44,183 nucleotides of DNA from Escherichia phage Psq-1. Below, piece by piece: positions 13,585 to 43,370 of the stretch; position 1 is the first letter of the stretch, and the number at the start of each line of letters is the position of its first letter. The notes beneath the pieces are model-generated. The model was not told where the DNA came from, did no database searches, and worked only from the letters and a program-made list of their open reading frames with translations. Made by a program: the position numbers and the translations under genes. The DNA lies in sequence record PQ595991.1. One strand, given 5' to 3'.

Positions 13585-14006
13585 TGAGCAATACTCTAAT
13601 CCGCAAGGCGCTTAACCGCGTGGTTGAAGAATTAGCGGTTAGCCTGAGCACTAGCCAGCGTCCGATCCAGGTTAACTGGGAGAACGTGAGCGGCGACCAC
13701 GCTAACGGCAATGGTGTATACCTGGAGCCGTACTTGCTACCGGCCCCGACCCAGTTTGTTGGCTTTCAGCAGAAAGGCCGGATCTATGCAGGCGTTTATC
13801 AGGTTGCAGTAGTGTTTCCCGCGGGCACGGGGACACAGTACGCGAGCGAACTGGCGGACTCCATCGCCACGTCGGATAAGTGGCAGGCAGTCAAGATCGC
13901 TGGCGCAGCGTTCCAGCTTCAGGACGCGCCATACACCAGTTCCGTGATTGAGGATGTAGACCGCGCACGCATCGTGGTTACAGTCCCCTACACATGTTGC
14001 GCCTGA
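13584..14006 (+). CDS. tail completion protein (putative, 140 aa)
   Basis: ATGA-overlapped ORF immediately before the major tail gene. Confidence 0.4.
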   Translation: MSNTLIRKALNRVVEELAVSLSTSQRPIQVNWENVSGDHANGNGVYLEPYLLPAPTQFVGFQQKGRIYAGVYQVAVVFPAGTGTQYASELADSIATSDKWQAVKIAGAAFQLQDAPYTSSVIEDVDRARIVVTVPYTCCA

Positions 14007-14067
14007 TTTGGCGCTATTCTGCGCGTGCTGTATCATTGAACCGTATATCTAAACAGGAGCGTTCATT

Positions 14068-14793
14068 ATGGGTTATCAACTTCCTAACGGGTCCAGCGTC
14101 CAGATTGGGTCCGTACTGGGCAACGGTATCGCTGTTACGGCAGCTACCAACGCCGCCGCGTCGATCTCTGATCTTACGAAAGGGTGCGTTATCACCTGCG
14201 CGGCTTCTCATGGCTTGAAAGTTGGCGACGTGGTTATGTTCACTAAAACCCCGTGGGTCCGTGCGCTGAACCGCGCGTTCATCGTGGGTAAAGTGGCGAC
14301 TAACGACGTTACACTGGCGCGCTTCGATACTCAAGACGTCACCAAATATCCTGCCGGTGCTTTTGGGGCGGGAACCCCAGGCGAAGTGGTGAAAGTGTCG
14401 AATTTTATCGACTTCCCGTATATCACTAACGTTGCCGTGTCGGGTGGCGACCAGCAGACCACCACCTTCCAGCCGTTGCAGGTGAATACCGCGATCAGTC
14501 TGAACACCACGAAAAACCCGTTGGTACAGACCTACACATTCACCCACGACGAAGAAGACCCGATCCGCCCGATTCTGGAAGACCTGGACGACACACAGAA
14601 AACCACTGTGATTAAGTTCACTAACCCGGCAGCGGCAAGCGGCAAAGGTGAGATCCGCATTTACCCGGCTAAGGTGTCTTTCCAGAAGATTCCATCTGCT
14701 GAAGTAAACAACGTGGAGACAGTGGAGTCCACTCTGACCATGCAATCCGATATGGTTATTTACCGTAAGGACCTGGTTGAAGCGCTGTCGTAA
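14068..14793 (+). CDS. major tail protein
   Basis: 241-aa ORF with strong RBS (CAGGAG), directly upstream of the G/GT chaperone pair and followed by a terminator. Confidence 0.65.
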   Translation: MGYQLPNGSSVQIGSVLGNGIAVTAATNAAASISDLTKGCVITCAASHGLKVGDVVMFTKTPWVRALNRAFIVGKVATNDVTLARFDTQDVTKYPAGAFGAGTPGEVVKVSNFIDFPYITNVAVSGGDQQTTTFQPLQVNTAISLNTTKNPLVQTYTFTHDEEDPIRPILEDLDDTQKTTVIKFTNPAAASGKGEIRIYPAKVSFQKIPSAEVNNVETVESTLTMQSDMVIYRKDLVEALS

Positions 14794-14823
14794 TTTGGTC
14801 GCTTAAATAGCGGGTGTTAATAT

Positions 14824-14846
14824 GGGGCCAGTACGGCCCCTTTTTT
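14824..14846 (+). terminator. rho-independent terminator
   Basis: GGGGCC-AGTA-CGGCCCC hairpin then TTTTTT. Confidence 0.6.
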
Positions 14847-14862
14847 ATTGGAGAATACTACA

Positions 14863-15225
14863 ATGGCAAAAGCACCACTCTTCACACTTGACCCTAAGCC
14901 GACCTTTAAGCTGCCGATTGAGATCCCGCGCCCCGGTGAAAACGAACCGGGGAAAATGACGTTTACCGTGCGCCACCGCCCGATCGACGAATTTTCGCAG
15001 ACCATGCAGGATACTGAGCGCAAGTTGTCGGAGTATGACGACAATGACCCTGACGGCTTTAACGTTATGGTCGAGGCCATCATGCACGTCGCAGAAGGCT
15101 GGAATCTACCAGACGAATTTAACGCGGAGAACGTCCGCCGCCTGGTGGTCAACTATCCGCGCGCGTTCGGCGTGTTCCACACTTCGTACTATCTCGAACT
15201 GATGGGATTGCGTGAAAAAAACTAA
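14863..15225 (+). CDS. tail assembly chaperone (lambda G-like)
   Basis: 121-aa ORF between the major tail and tape-measure genes, ending in the slippery heptamer A_AAA_AAC. Start at ATG 14863 (GGAG upstream). Confidence 0.65.
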   Translation: MAKAPLFTLDPKPTFKLPIEIPRPGENEPGKMTFTVRHRPIDEFSQTMQDTERKLSEYDDNDPDGFNVMVEAIMHVAEGWNLPDEFNAENVRRLVVNYPRAFGVFHTSYYLELMGLREKN

Positions 15226-15539
15226 TTGAGGCGGCGCGACGCTTTTATGGCCCGCCGCCACCATCCGAAGATTTAGCCGCGAGTTTATGGGGCGCGACCC
15301 CTGAAGACGTTTGCCCTCCGGTTGCACTATGGCCTGACAATGCGAAGGTAGTCGCAGTCTTCACAGATTGCTCCACGCAATGGCGTACCGGATTCGGTGG
15401 CGCATACGGCATCGACTACGGCGTACTGGAATGGTTATTTAATATGCACGGCATCGAAAACGCGCAACGTGCGTTTAAAGATATCAAGCTAATGGAACGC
15501 GTTGCGCTGGATGAAATGGCGCGGCAGAACCCCGCATAA
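14863..15539 (+). CDS. tail assembly chaperone frameshift product (lambda GT-like), -1 shift at 15216-15222
   Basis: The -1 frame is open, without an ATG, from the slippery site to TAA 15537-15539 and encodes ...AYGIDYGVLEWLFNMHGIENAQRAFKDIKLMERVALDEMARQNPA. A 7-bp GC stem (15230-15236 / 15253-15259) lies 7 nt downstream of the heptamer. Confidence 0.55.
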
Positions 15540-15540
15540 C

Positions 15541-15870
15541 GGAGCGGGACAGGCGGGACGTCCCGTTTTGTCACGCACCTCTAAAACTGCATATTTACTC
15601 ACCACAATTGCATAAACTAAAAGCGGGACAGGCGGGACGTCCCGTTTTGTCCCACCCCCAAAATGTGAATGTCTATTCAGTTTTAGTGCATAAAGTAAGC
15701 GGGACAAAAAGCGGGACAAACCAGGGGCGGGACAAAGTGGGACAGCACCCCCGTCCCCGTCAGTGCTGCCGCGGGTTTTAGCCGATCGGGACAGGCGGGA
15801 CAAACCCCAGTCTTTCAGACTAGACGGGGGTCAGTTGGCCCCCTCGTCTGAGACTGAATAAGGTTTGTTT
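15541..15870. repeat. iteron-like repeat element, copy A
   Basis: About 12 GCGGGACA/GGGACA boxes, two 30-bp direct repeats (15543-15572, 15622-15651) each holding the palindrome CGGGACGTCCCG, TGCATAAA boxes, and a GC-rich inverted repeat (15808-15856). Segment 15687-15861 recurs at 43050-43222. Confidence 0.6.
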
Positions 15871-15924
15871 TAAATTCGCTGATACAATGACCGACGGCAA
15901 CTGCATAAAAAGGGGGACTGCATA

Positions 15925-18567
15925 ATGGCAGATCAGGCAGCGGGCATCACGCTCAAGGCGGACGTCGCGCAAATTAAAACGGCTAATACTGTGCTGGACA
16001 CATTTGCGCAGAAATCCGAGAACACAGAACAGAAAGTAAAGAAATTAAACGACACACTCGGCAAGTCGAAAAAGGTTACTGGCGACGCCGCTGGCGGAAT
16101 GGAAAAGTTAGCGACTGAATCGCAGCGCGCCGCCGACGGCATGACGAAACAGGAGCGACTCGCCAGCCGATTAGGCATGTCGACCAAAAACCTGGGATTT
16201 GCATCGCGTAACGCCGCATTCCAGTTACAGGATATCGCGGTTACGCTTGAGATGGGTATGCCGGTGCACCGCGTCATGCTTCAGCAGCTACCACAGCTAA
16301 CCGGCGCATTTGGCGGACTGGGTAACACGCTGCGTTATGTTGCAGGATTCCTCGGCCCAGTAGGGATCGGACTTGCTGCCGTAACGGCGACGTTAGGCGT
16401 GGGCGTGGCAATTACGTCACGGGCAGAGAACCAGGTAGCCGCGCTTAATAAGACGCTGGCGCTGTCCGGTAATATCTCCGGCCTCACAGCTAACCAGATC
16501 CTGGTGCTGTCCGAGAACGCTGAGCGAATGGGCGGGTCATTTCGCAAGACGCGTGACACAATCCAGGCGCTGGCGGCGGCGGGTGTGAAAGCGGGTGGTG
16601 ACTTCGGCGCATTGGCTAAGGTAGTTAATGACTTTGCGAAGGTGTCCAGCCAGCCGATCGAGGATGTGGTGGCGGCGGTGGCGAAGCTGTCAACCGACCC
16701 CGTTGGCGGACTGCGTGCGCTGGCGGATAAGTATCACGTCGTAAACGAAGCGCAGATCCAGCAGGTACAGTCGCTCGTTGATGCGGGTCGTGAGACAGAC
16801 GCAGTTGCGCTGGCTAACAAAACAGCCGCTGCGTCGTTCACCAGCATGACCAATGAGATCAAGGCGAACATGGGTACGCTTGAGCGATCTATGAACGTCG
16901 TCACATCGGCAGCCAAATCAATGTGGGATGCCATCCTGGATGTGGGCCGCGCGCAGTCCTCCAATGAATCCGAGATGAAAGCGCGCGAATCACTGCAGCG
17001 GCTGACCACAGCTTACTATGCCGAGATGAAAGCGGTAAACGCTGCCGGTGGGGTAATGACTGAAGCGCAGAAAGCACGTATTAACATGCTTTACAGCGAA
17101 CTGGTCGCCCAGGAAAAAGTGGTGGCGTCGCTCACCCTTCGTAACCGTGCTGAGCGAGACAACGCCCGCGCCGCAGACGAATCCGCAAAGGCGAACGAGG
17201 AGGCCAACCGCACTGCCCGTGACCGCGCCGCGTTCGAGAAGGAATACGCCACCAACGCTAAGAAGCGCGCCGACGAGATCGCCCGCCTCAATTTGCTGAA
17301 TAAGCGTGGTGTTATTGACGAGAAAGAGCTTGCCGAGGCGGTGAAGCAGGTAAACGAGCGTTACAAAGACCCCGCCCCGAAGAAGGCCGCGGCTGTTCGC
17401 GTGGATGCCGGTATGAAAATGCTGGAAGTCGCACGGAGCGAACTGGCCCAGCTTCGAGAATCCGGCAAGCAGATCGAAGCCAACGCGTCTACGCAGACCC
17501 GCACGCAACGCGCTCAAGCGGCCTTAAACAAGCTGATCGCCGATAATGAGCAGTTAATCGCTGCGAGCAAAGAAAGAGCGCTAACGGCAGCAGAAAAGCA
17601 GCAATTAGTTGAGTTCGGGCGCGTGAAGGAAGTCCGCGAGCAGATCGTCGAAGAAGCCAAATTGCTGGATGCGAAAGAGCAGCAGGTTAAGGCGCACGCG
17701 CAGATCGATGCCTTCGTTAAGAACCAGAACGCCGAACTAAAAGCCACCGCCGCGGGGTATGCGCTTTCCACTCGCGAAGCGGCAAACCTGCGCGAAGAAT
17801 TGCAGCTAATTGACCGCCTGAAGCGGGTTGGCGCTAACGATACCGATATTGACAAGGCGGTGTCTAAGCTGCGAGAAGTGCAGGAAGCACAGACCGGCGC
17901 TAACGCCTCGTTATGGGATGGATTCAGTCGCGGGCTTAAGGATAGCGTGGATGAGATGGGTAACGGATATACGCAGATGGCGTCTCTCACGAAATTCACA
18001 TTCAGCGCTATGCAGGACACGATGAACGAGTTTTTCGAGACTGGCAAGCTGAACGCAAAGGATATGGTTAAGTCCATCCTGCGCGAATTAATCAAGCTGG
18101 CTACCTCGCAGGCGTTCAAGTCCATCGTTAGCGCTTTCGGTGGTGACGGCGGCAAAAACGGATTGTTCGGCGCTATCTTCTCTGGCCTTACTAAGAATGC
18201 GGACGGCGGAGCGTACGCAGGAGGCAATCTCGCGGCCTATTCGGGGAAAGTGGTAAGCCAGCCTACCTTTTTCAGTTATGGCGTCCAGGCGTTCGCTAAG
18301 GGCGCTGGGTTGATGGGTGAGGCTGGACCCGAGGCCATCATGCCACTGAAGCGCGGGCCGGACGGGAAACTGGGCGTTGCCGCGTCTGGCGCAGGCGGTG
18401 GTATGGTCGTGACGACTAACGTTTACACGGGGACCGGTAAGACGGATACCAGTGTGAGCGGACCGGACCCACGCACCGCGCAGGCGTTCGGAAAGCAAAT
18501 CACCGAGTCGGTCAAGGCCGAGATTGTGAAGGCGACGAAACCGGGTGGTGTACTTTACAAACGATGA
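15925..18567 (+). CDS. tail tape measure protein (880 aa)
   Basis: Long alpha-helical, A/E/K/Q-rich ORF with Gly-rich C-terminal region, downstream of the G/GT chaperone. Confidence 0.85.
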   Translation: MADQAAGITLKADVAQIKTANTVLDTFAQKSENTEQKVKKLNDTLGKSKKVTGDAAGGMEKLATESQRAADGMTKQERLASRLGMSTKNLGFASRNAAFQLQDIAVTLEMGMPVHRVMLQQLPQLTGAFGGLGNTLRYVAGFLGPVGIGLAAVTATLGVGVAITSRAENQVAALNKTLALSGNISGLTANQILVLSENAERMGGSFRKTRDTIQALAAAGVKAGGDFGALAKVVNDFAKVSSQPIEDVVAAVAKLSTDPVGGLRALADKYHVVNEAQIQQVQSLVDAGRETDAVALANKTAAASFTSMTNEIKANMGTLERSMNVVTSAAKSMWDAILDVGRAQSSNESEMKARESLQRLTTAYYAEMKAVNAAGGVMTEAQKARINMLYSELVAQEKVVASLTLRNRAERDNARAADESAKANEEANRTARDRAAFEKEYATNAKKRADEIARLNLLNKRGVIDEKELAEAVKQVNERYKDPAPKKAAAVRVDAGMKMLEVARSELAQLRESGKQIEANASTQTRTQRAQAALNKLIADNEQLIAASKERALTAAEKQQLVEFGRVKEVREQIVEEAKLLDAKEQQVKAHAQIDAFVKNQNAELKATAAGYALSTREAANLREELQLIDRLKRVGANDTDIDKAVSKLREVQEAQTGANASLWDGFSRGLKDSVDEMGNGYTQMASLTKFTFSAMQDTMNEFFETGKLNAKDMVKSILRELIKLATSQAFKSIVSAFGGDGGKNGLFGAIFSGLTKNADGGAYAGGNLAAYSGKVVSQPTFFSYGVQAFAKGAGLMGEAGPEAIMPLKRGPDGKLGVAASGAGGGMVVTTNVYTGTGKTDTSVSGPDPRTAQAFGKQITESVKAEIVKATKPGGVLYKR

Positions 18568-43049: not shown

Positions 43050-43222
43050 TGCATAAAGTAAGCGGGACAAAAAGCGGGACAGACCAGGGGCGGGACAAAG
43101 CGGGACAGCACCCCCGTCCCGCCCCGGATGACGCGGCCTGGCGAGGAGCGGGACAGGCGGGACAACTACCAGTCTTTCAGACTAGACGGGGGTCAACGGC
43201 CCCCCTCGTCTGAGACTGCATA
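43050..43222. repeat. iteron-like repeat element, copy B
   Basis: Six GCGGGACA boxes, a TGCATAAA box, inverted GTCCCGC...GCGGGAC, and the same GC-rich inverted repeat as copy A (43170-43217). AT-rich stretch at 43021-43050. Confidence 0.6.
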
Positions 43223-43370
43223 AAATCCGGGATTGCAAAATACACGGCAGCACATTGTAAATTGCGGTCGTCGCGGAACTAGGCAACCAATGCGGGATGC
43301 AGAACGTGGTGTGAAAAATGCAGTCACAGCAGATAGCGATCAACTTTTTCATACGCGTGATTAATATTGG

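Follow-up and report, generated by a model that had tools for sequence, protein, structure and literature searches.

The window, that is, the whole stretch of 44,183 nt that was analysed (Escherichia phage Psq-1, PQ595991.1), is a Dhillonvirus, an HK578-like E. coli siphophage. Its positions 14000-16200 match 158 phage records at 80-97% identity; nearly all of these are Dhillonvirus, E. coli siphophages of the HK578 / SSL-2009a / EP23 / JL1 group, with phiEco273 as the best match (97.3%). Within this region, a major tail protein gene (14068-14793) is followed by a G-like chaperone gene, by a T-like reading frame that ends at 15539 and by the gene for an 880-aa tape measure protein (15925-18567). 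The order of the genes agrees with the annotations of relatives, and the G/T pair is flanked by the major tail and tape measure protein genes, the position expected for the G/GT class. The features of the locus are collected in Table 1.

Table 1. Features of the G/T locus, in positions of the window.
Feature	Position	Strand	Basis
Terminator-like hairpin GGGGCC-AGTAC-GGCCCC plus T6, between the major tail gene and the chaperone gene	14824..14846	+	Consensus scan
G-like tail assembly chaperone ORF, zero frame, 120 aa	14863..15225	+	Pfam, PHROG, annotated relatives
−1-frame TGA directly 5' of the heptamer	15213..15215	+	Frame reading
Slippery heptamer A_AAA_AAC (gaA AAA AAC)	15216..15222	+	Sequence reading; conserved in register
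T-like extension, −1 frame, 105 aa plus TAA	15222..15539	+	PF08809 DUF1799, PHROGs, codon-position bias
Zero-frame TAA abutting the heptamer; candidate 'shifty stop' contributor	15223..15225	+	Family-wide TGA/TAA only
Hairpin, putative frameshift stimulator	15230..15259	+	MFE, synonymous-site suppression, analogous hairpins in relatives
Terminator-like palindrome CGGGAC/GTCCCG plus T-run, just 3' of the T stop	15554..15571	+	Read from sequence

The hairpin upstream of G probably attenuates transcription into this gene, and comparable terminators are annotated at the equivalent place in HK639 and Stevie. The palindrome downstream of T is a candidate for the element that ends the G/GT unit; at the equivalent position in HK578, a rho-independent terminator is annotated. 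No tRNA genes that could alter decoding are encoded in the window.

A GGAG (14850-14853) is found 9 nt upstream of the G start codon. The G product belongs to PF08748 (Phage_TAC_4), above the curated gathering threshold, scoring 83.9 bits (cut-off 21.1; E=1.4e-23) with residues 1-120 aligned to model positions 1-124 of 124. It also matches phrog_569 (E=1e-40), and the 363-nt G CDS is annotated in all public relatives inspected. The −1 frame comprises 107 codons, from 15216 to the TAA at 15537-15539, and its product belongs to PF08809 (DUF1799) by the same standard, with 75.2 bits (cut-off 26; E=4.9e-21) and −1-frame residues 25-101 aligned to model positions 1-80 of 80. The T half matches phrog_680, and a further profile, phrog_17368, spans the whole predicted fusion (query 1-223, profile 1-212 of 213). 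This predicted GT product, join(14863..15222,15222..15539), would be 225 aa long, and the −1-frame peptides predicted from it include NLIEAAR and FYGPPPPSEDLAASLWGATPEDVCPPVALWPDNAK. Sequence and profile searches of solved structures yielded no meaningful match. An earlier note, made from the letters of the DNA, had proposed a tail assembly chaperone gene at this place and a −1 frame open as far as the TAA given above. Both proposals hold, the former through the Phage_TAC_4 match and the location of the gene between the major tail and tape measure genes.

The −1 frame bears the marks of a coding sequence. Among 19 unique Dhillonvirus sequences, the variable sites of the T region are distributed over codon positions 1/2/3 of the −1 frame as 23/10/73, which indicates that this frame is translated and under purifying selection; the G region, in its own frame, gives 10/6/76. 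Homologues of T are widespread, with about 790 phage records and, in an exhaustive HMMER search with the T domain, 1,126 cluster representatives. All of the best 150 of these 1,126 homologues are 38-150 aa long, with no natural in-frame fusion of G and T among them, and the split-frame state therefore appears to be maintained. A word-indexed search for in-frame G-T fusions returned two G-only proteins and no fusion.

How T is reached by ribosomes is constrained by its lack of start codons. The first 76 codons of the −1 frame contain no ATG, GTG or TTG, the first start-like codon being codon 77, and the internal ATGs at 15444, 15492 and 15516 lie inside or after the DUF1799 domain; none of them could yield this domain. 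The statement in the earlier note that the −1 frame has no ATG is therefore right for the first 76 codons and wrong for the remainder. T might nonetheless be made as a separate small protein, without any fusion, by termination-reinitiation or by non-canonical initiation, for example at the ATT (15225-15227) that overlaps the G stop. Indeed, HK578 gp16 is annotated as a stand-alone CDS from ATT, short T-frame ORFs are called in many records, and gene callers give sizes of 38-150 aa for T homologues. We nevertheless regard this explanation as very unlikely. Apart from the 76 start-less codons at the beginning of the frame, no SD precedes the ATT, and the position is not kept start-like in relatives, which have ATT, ATC, ATA, AAA, AGG or GAG there. 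The called short ORFs begin at arbitrary internal positions and truncate DUF1799 (e.g. to 31 or 38 aa), and separate synthesis of T would leave the invariant in-register slippery heptamer without a reason.

This heptamer stands at the very end of the G ORF, which reads CGT GAA AAA AAC TAA, in the canonical X_XXY_YYZ register. The zero and −1 frames share no more than 10 nt, made up of heptamer and stop codon, because a −1-frame TGA directly precedes the heptamer. A productive −1 shift is therefore confined to 15216-15222, the sole position of an in-register heptamer, and the same 10-nt overlap is common to 21/21 Dhillonvirus loci. In the window's long open frames, in-frame XXXYYYZ heptamers account for 0.23% of codons, and AAAAAAC is under-represented, with 3 copies in 44 kb vs 7.6 expected. 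Together with the recurrence of heptamer and stop in 95 of 97 loci described below, these figures establish that the heptamer at the end of G is more than a chance occurrence.

For the comparison across relatives, we used 97 loci with T homologues: the window, 52 IMG/VR viral contigs, 16 GenBank phage regions (including T1, Stevie, HK639, eiAU-183, K50, HK578 and Ralstonia, Pseudomonas and Stenotrophomonas phages) and 28 prophage loci from Gamma-, Beta- and Alphaproteobacteria and other lineages. In 97/97 loci, T occupies the −1 frame with respect to a G-like ORF, which is about 105-140 codons long. Globally, the heptamer was present in register and directly before the G stop in 95/97 loci, as AAAAAAC-TGA (56 loci), AAAAAAC-TAA (34 loci) or GGGAAAC-TGA (5 loci), so that A_AAA_AAC is in register in 90/97 loci and G_GGA_AAC replaces it in 5 more. 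The abutting stop is thus TGA in 61 loci and TAA in 34, and TAG was found in 0/95. The two exceptions, Pectobacterium phage Koroua and phiEB49, carry an A_AAG tetramer near the stop instead. The signal is kept among related loci whose T identity is as low as 29%, and in proteobacterial prophages this identity is about 29-45%.

The same comparison bears on the possibility that the shift is made by RNA polymerase rather than by the ribosome. If the polymerase stuttered on the uninterrupted A7 run at 15215-15221 and added one extra A, exactly the right frame would be obtained, with the junction ...REKKLIEAA, and two relatives have an A8 run. However, the length of the run is not what is conserved: it is A6 in 52 of the 90 loci of the AAAAAAC class, A7 in 36 and A8 in 2, and the five GGGAAAC variants have only A3 at the equivalent position. 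The codon register of the heptamer stays constant while the length of the A-run varies. Two of the loci read AGA AAA AAC TGA. What is conserved is therefore a codon-register pattern and not a homopolymer, which argues for ribosomal over transcriptional slippage. Productive transcriptional slippage in bacteria usually needs runs of 9 or more. Moreover, neither a hairpin at ribosomal spacing nor an abutting stop codon has a role in polymerase slippage, and we consider this origin of the T product highly improbable.

Downstream of the heptamer, the RNA is predicted to fold into a hairpin with a 7-bp GC stem, formed by GGCGGCG (15230-15236) and its exact reverse complement CGCCGCC (15253-15259), and with a 16-nt loop that includes about 4 extra inner pairs. 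The spacer between heptamer and stem is 7 nt (15223-15229), within the 5-9 nt at which a stem-loop is expected 3' of a heptamer of the dnaX type. The earlier note had read the register of the heptamer, the stem and this spacing in the same way, and all three proved correct. The hairpin is the MFE structure (−17.1 kcal/mol) and, among the 42-nt windows of its own locus, belongs to the top 2%; considered by itself, it surpasses dinucleotide shuffles by only a narrow margin (z=−1.6 for 53 nt; z=−1.86, p=0.027 for 42 nt). Its sequence is nevertheless constrained within Dhillonvirus: among the 19 unique sequences, 0/5 synonymous sites in the stem arms vary vs 70/93 elsewhere in T (p=0.0014), and from the G stop to the 3' arm 3/12 third-position sites vary vs 70/93 in the rest of T (Fisher p=0.001). 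By this measure, the synonymous sites of the hairpin are frozen within the genus.

Similar hairpins recur across the family. We grouped the loci into 44 lineage clusters, which are not fully independent, so that the p-values over them are indicative only. In 22/44 clusters, the 42-nt segment that follows the stop is more stably folded than 95% of windows from the same locus (binomial 2e-17), and in 17/44 it surpasses 95% of the dinucleotide shuffles made from it (binomial 1e-11; Wilcoxon on z-scores 1.7e-6). Roughly 40-50% of the 44 lineages thus have a comparable hairpin, with arms of another sequence, and in most of the lineages that bear one the stem begins 6-8 nt after the heptamer. The arms vary between lineages along with the amino acids that they encode: GAG GCG GCG … CCG CCG CC in the window (Ala-Ala / Pro-Pro), GAG GCC GCC … GGC GGC GG in metagenomic relatives (Ala-Ala / Gly-Gly), GCG GTT T … AAA CCG CC in T1 (Ala-Val / Lys-Pro), and GCCGCGCGC … GCGCGCGGC in many prophages. 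In a fixed-column covariation test on a 40-sequence gapless alignment, controls slid by −1 and +3 scored equal to the proposed pairing; the arms are (GGC)n/(GCC)n triplet repeats, and the register of the 3' arm differs between lineages. The case for the hairpin is accordingly built on folding per lineage, against local windows and dinucleotide shuffles, and on the suppression of synonymous variation. A convincing hairpin is absent from about one third of the 44 lineages, including Rtp-like IME253, Pseudomonas and Stenotrophomonas phages and several prophages, and it is therefore best seen as a common stimulator, not an obligatory one.

Other stimulators were searched for around the heptamer. 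An upstream SD-like element of the dnaX type is not supported, neither in the window, where the anti-SD duplex of −3.7 kcal/mol is at the 28th percentile of the locus, nor family-wide, where 3/43 clusters fall below the 5th percentile (p=0.36). In a metagenomic subgroup, GGGAG sits 7 nt upstream. Rfam gave nothing overlapping 15216-15259 at E≤5. A single calculation of pseudoknot potential yielded a loop-to-downstream duplex of −10.6 kcal/mol.

One could suppose that the −1 frame is a decaying gene fragment, and that a GC-rich coding region has produced the heptamer and the stem by chance. The marginal significance of the window's hairpin on its own would fit this. The third-position bias in the −1 frame, a Pfam match far above threshold, the many homologues (in about 790 phage records, and 1,126 as cluster representatives) and a signal in 95/97 loci all speak against it; coincidence or a gene remnant is effectively refuted by the comparative data, and its probability is close to nil.

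We therefore interpret the locus as a site of programmed −1 frameshifting that yields a short G protein and a longer G-T fusion, a reading to which we assign a probability of roughly 90%. It is supported by the 10-nt overlap of the frames, the protein families of both products, the order of the genes, the start-less −1 frame and the conserved signal. Most ribosomes would terminate at the TAA that abuts the heptamer and release the 120-aa G-like protein, whereas a minority would slip back by one nucleotide on A_AAA_AAC and read the −1 frame to its own TAA. The product of the slip would be the 225-aa fusion, whose C-terminal half is the DUF1799 domain. The GC hairpin 7 nt downstream probably promotes the slip, and slow decoding of the abutting stop possibly helps it. 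The sequence of the junction would depend on the moment of slippage: tandem slippage, or a slip of the P-site tRNA-Asn with the stop in the A site, would give …LREKN-LIEAARR…, whereas a slip before the decoding of Asn would give …LREKK-LIEAARR….

Judged by analogy to lambda gpG/gpGT, the G part, which both proteins contain, may coat the tape measure protein, the rare T part may recruit the major tail protein, and a fixed G:GT ratio would support correct tail assembly. In the lambda system, this ratio is roughly 30:1 (PMC5009743). In E. coli, A_AAA_AAC shifts far less readily than A_AAA_AAG (PMC5009743), and the efficiency at the Dhillonvirus site may therefore be low. Low efficiency is what a system of the lambda type would need, and a weak heptamer combined with a hairpin, and perhaps with the abutting stop, would be consistent with a ratio like that of lambda.

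The stop codon could also contribute more than this. As an alternative to a shift driven mainly by heptamer and hairpin, the site may act as a 'shifty stop', at which the P-site tRNA-Asn (or the E/P pair) re-pairs on AAA while a slow stop codon occupies the A site. In that case, stimulation would come mainly from the stop, the G:GT ratio would be tuned by the levels of release factors, and the hairpin would play a secondary part or not be needed at all. An adjacent stop codon reportedly enhances slippage in E. coli (Weiss et al., in 1987). The stop immediately abuts the heptamer in 95/95 heptamer loci, as TGA or TAA and never as TAG. The next T-frame codon varies (Ile, Lys, Arg), so it is the stop or the Leu codon that is conserved and not the peptide. 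Furthermore, about a third of the lineages keep heptamer and stop without a significant hairpin. On the other hand, the strong family-wide enrichment of hairpins at 6-8 nt and their frozen synonymous sites in Dhillonvirus speak for a role of the hairpin, and the full X_XXY_YYZ motif is kept, beyond the A_AAC tetramer that a single-tRNA slip in the P site needs. We regard a stop-driven mechanism as a minority possibility.

A generalization to the whole TAC_4/DUF1799 family can be put forward tentatively. These loci might share a rigid cassette, consisting of the heptamer, an abutting UGA or UAA (never UAG) and usually a GC hairpin 6-8 nt further on, in which the stop would be an integral stimulator and the availability of release factors would set the G:GT ratio. 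The N-terminus of T (K-K/N-L-I-E-A-A) would then be dictated by the RNA signal and not by protein function. We consider this proposal speculative and rather doubtful as a whole; if true, it would define a distinct, deeply conserved class of −1 sites, a 'heptamer plus shifty stop', on a heptamer that is weak in E. coli. Whatever the mechanism, the invariance of heptamer and abutting stop across such a broad family offers a natural series for studying how stop codon and hairpin cooperate in bacterial −1 frameshifting.

In its general form, the event is an ordinary instance of a very well known kind of recoding, and the orthologue in T1-like phages is already annotated. Among Dhillonvirus, we looked at nine records (phiEco273, SSL-2009a, KarlBarth, JLBYU37, HK578, Pandora71 and Opt212, with StarDew and EP23 by their feature lists) and found the G and T ORFs joined in 0/9, the RefSeq entries of HK578 and SSL-2009a included. 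In these nine, T is absent, reduced to a fragment of 31-38 aa or given as a CDS with an ATT start (HK578 gp16). The product names in 60 of the 158 matching records likewise showed no sign of a joined product, and both halves carry the PHROG-derived label 'tail length tape measure protein', which is misleading. Our search for Dhillonvirus-specific literature on a G/GT frameshift or on G:GT products found none. The main value of the present reading thus lies in annotation: a CDS of the form join(14863..15222,15222..15539) would correct the annotation of this structural gene across the genus.

Several known systems can be compared with the locus. The signals of E. coli dnaX and of IS elements share with it the use of bacterial ribosomes, an A-rich heptamer and a downstream hairpin at similar spacing. 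In IS1, the motif is A6C. The dnaX signal consists of A_AAA_AAG, an upstream SD-like element and a downstream hairpin; the window's heptamer ends in C and not in G, a dnaX-type upstream stimulator is missing from the window, and the products are unrelated to those of dnaX or IS elements. That IS1 uses a frameshift has been described (PMC5009743).

The resemblance to lambda gpG/gpGT is one of architecture. Both systems lie between the major tail and tape measure genes and consist of a short chaperone ORF and a −1 extension lacking its own start, with an X_XXY_YYZ heptamer near the end of G; by the same analogy, low-level slippage would be expected to set the G:GT ratio. The lambda frameshift is reportedly the subject of work by Levin, Hendrix and Casjens (1993) and by Xu, Hendrix and Duda (2004, 2013 and 2014). 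The two differ in that the lambda heptamer, G_GGA_AAG, is placed five codons before the G stop whereas A_AAA_AAC abuts it in the window, and in that lambda T overlaps H whereas a terminator and a long gap come after T in the window. Profile comparison with hhalign detected no homology between the T family and lambda gpT (probability 1.05%) or between the G family and lambda gpG (probability 0.19%). The pair is therefore an analogue of the lambda pair, and the mechanism at the level of the proteins rests on analogy. The earlier note had invoked the conserved G/GT frameshift of tailed phages and a T-domain product. This is borne out for architecture, position, a signal in 95/97 loci and a homologue in Stevie, and for the −1 product in the form of a DUF1799 domain; it does not extend to sequence homology with lambda gpG and gpT or to membership in the gpT family. 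Every testable defining feature of the G/GT class is present at the locus, by architecture and position and not by sequence.

The closest counterpart is found in T1-like phages (Drexlerviridae; Citrobacter phage Stevie CPT_Stevie15/16 and coliphage T1), which are of a different genus and family from Dhillonvirus. They have homologous Phage_TAC_4 and DUF1799 proteins, with T 35-38% identical, and share with the window the gene order and an A_AAA_AAC directly before TAA. T1, Stevie and K50 combine the same heptamer and the same abutting stop with an analogous hairpin. In the T1-like phages, this hairpin, again 7 nt downstream, has the arms GGCGGTTT/AAACCGCC, whereas those of the window are GGCGGCG/CGCCGCC. 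The gap between T and the tape measure gene differs as well, being 385 nt, repeat-filled and with terminators in Dhillonvirus and about 40 nt in T1-like phages. A G-T-type fusion has been hypothesised for Rogue1 (PMC3496638). In the Stevie record, the two frames are joined in a single CDS annotated as a frameshifted "tape measure chaperone", and this gene pair has been described as a conserved translational frameshift (PMC4319613).

The best-conserved part of the T-frame N-terminus in the T-family alignment (A2) was its first ∼8 residues, K-K/N-L-[IKR]-E/R-A-A, which map exactly onto the heptamer, the stop codon and the 5′ stem arm of the frameshift signal (window 15216-15240). Because of this coincidence, the conservation may reflect constraint at the level of the RNA rather than protein function. 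Among the 97 loci with T homologues, only two lacked an X_XXY_YYZ heptamer with a stop codon, namely those of Pectobacterium phage Koroua (L062) and phiEB49 (L064). Since an A_AAG tetramer replaces the heptamer in both, their sequences suggest a changeover to single-tRNA-Lys slippage in these lineages.

Mis-annotation of the chaperone ORFs was systematic in public records. The families phrog_569, phrog_680 and phrog_17368 all bear the label 'tail length tape measure protein', a name that has spread to the chaperone ORFs of many genomes, both in RefSeq and among those annotated with Pharokka. The T part appears as fragments of 31-38 aa or with an ATT start (HK578 gp16). The match lists for the window region and the T homologues also contained records under the name 'Acinetobacter phage NJ01', as well as several labelled 'Campylobacter phage', that were at least 93% identical to coliphage Dhillonvirus or carried T1-like chaperone genes. 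The host assignments of these records look doubtful, perhaps owing to contamination or mislabelling.

Terminator-like structures were present on both sides of the chaperone genes (see table). The upstream hairpin is likely an attenuator, by which the downstream tail genes would be expressed below the major tail protein. Downstream, the first copy of the palindrome AGCGGGACAGGCGGGACGTCCCGTTTTGTC is annotated as a rho-independent terminator in the record of the Dhillonvirus phage HK578. Chaperone and tape measure genes normally abut in siphophage tail modules; a terminator and a long gap between G/GT and the tape measure gene form an unusual layout.

Features around the chaperone genes, and the two loci lacking heptamer and stop
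Feature	Position	Details
Strong terminator-like hairpin	14824-14846	GGGGCC…GGCCCC + T6; between major tail and chaperone genes
AGCGGGACAGGCGGGACGTCCCGTTTTGTC, copy 1	15543-15572	terminator-like palindrome + T-run; directly downstream of T
AGCGGGACAGGCGGGACGTCCCGTTTTGTC, copy 2	15622-15651	as copy 1
T stop-to-tape measure gap	15540-15924	385 nt; 7 CGGGACA copies, + strand
Second intergenic region with CGGGACA	43050-43226	6 further copies
Koroua	L062, 670-720	CAA AAG TAA (A_AAG)
phiEB49	L064, 650-700	GCA AAG GTC TAA (A_AAG)

CGGGACA occurred 16 times in the window (6.4±2.4 expected), a count that none of 100 shuffles reached. The two intergenic regions share a module of ∼175 nt (15686-15861 and 43050-43226; 86% identity), in which a long GC hairpin (…CAGACTAGACGGGGG…CCCCCTCGTCTGAGACTG) comes after the CGGGACA array. 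These modules are possibly promoters or regulator-binding sites. Intergenic repeats without explanation are mentioned for T1-like phages in the paper on the Citrobacter phage Stevie (PMC4319613).
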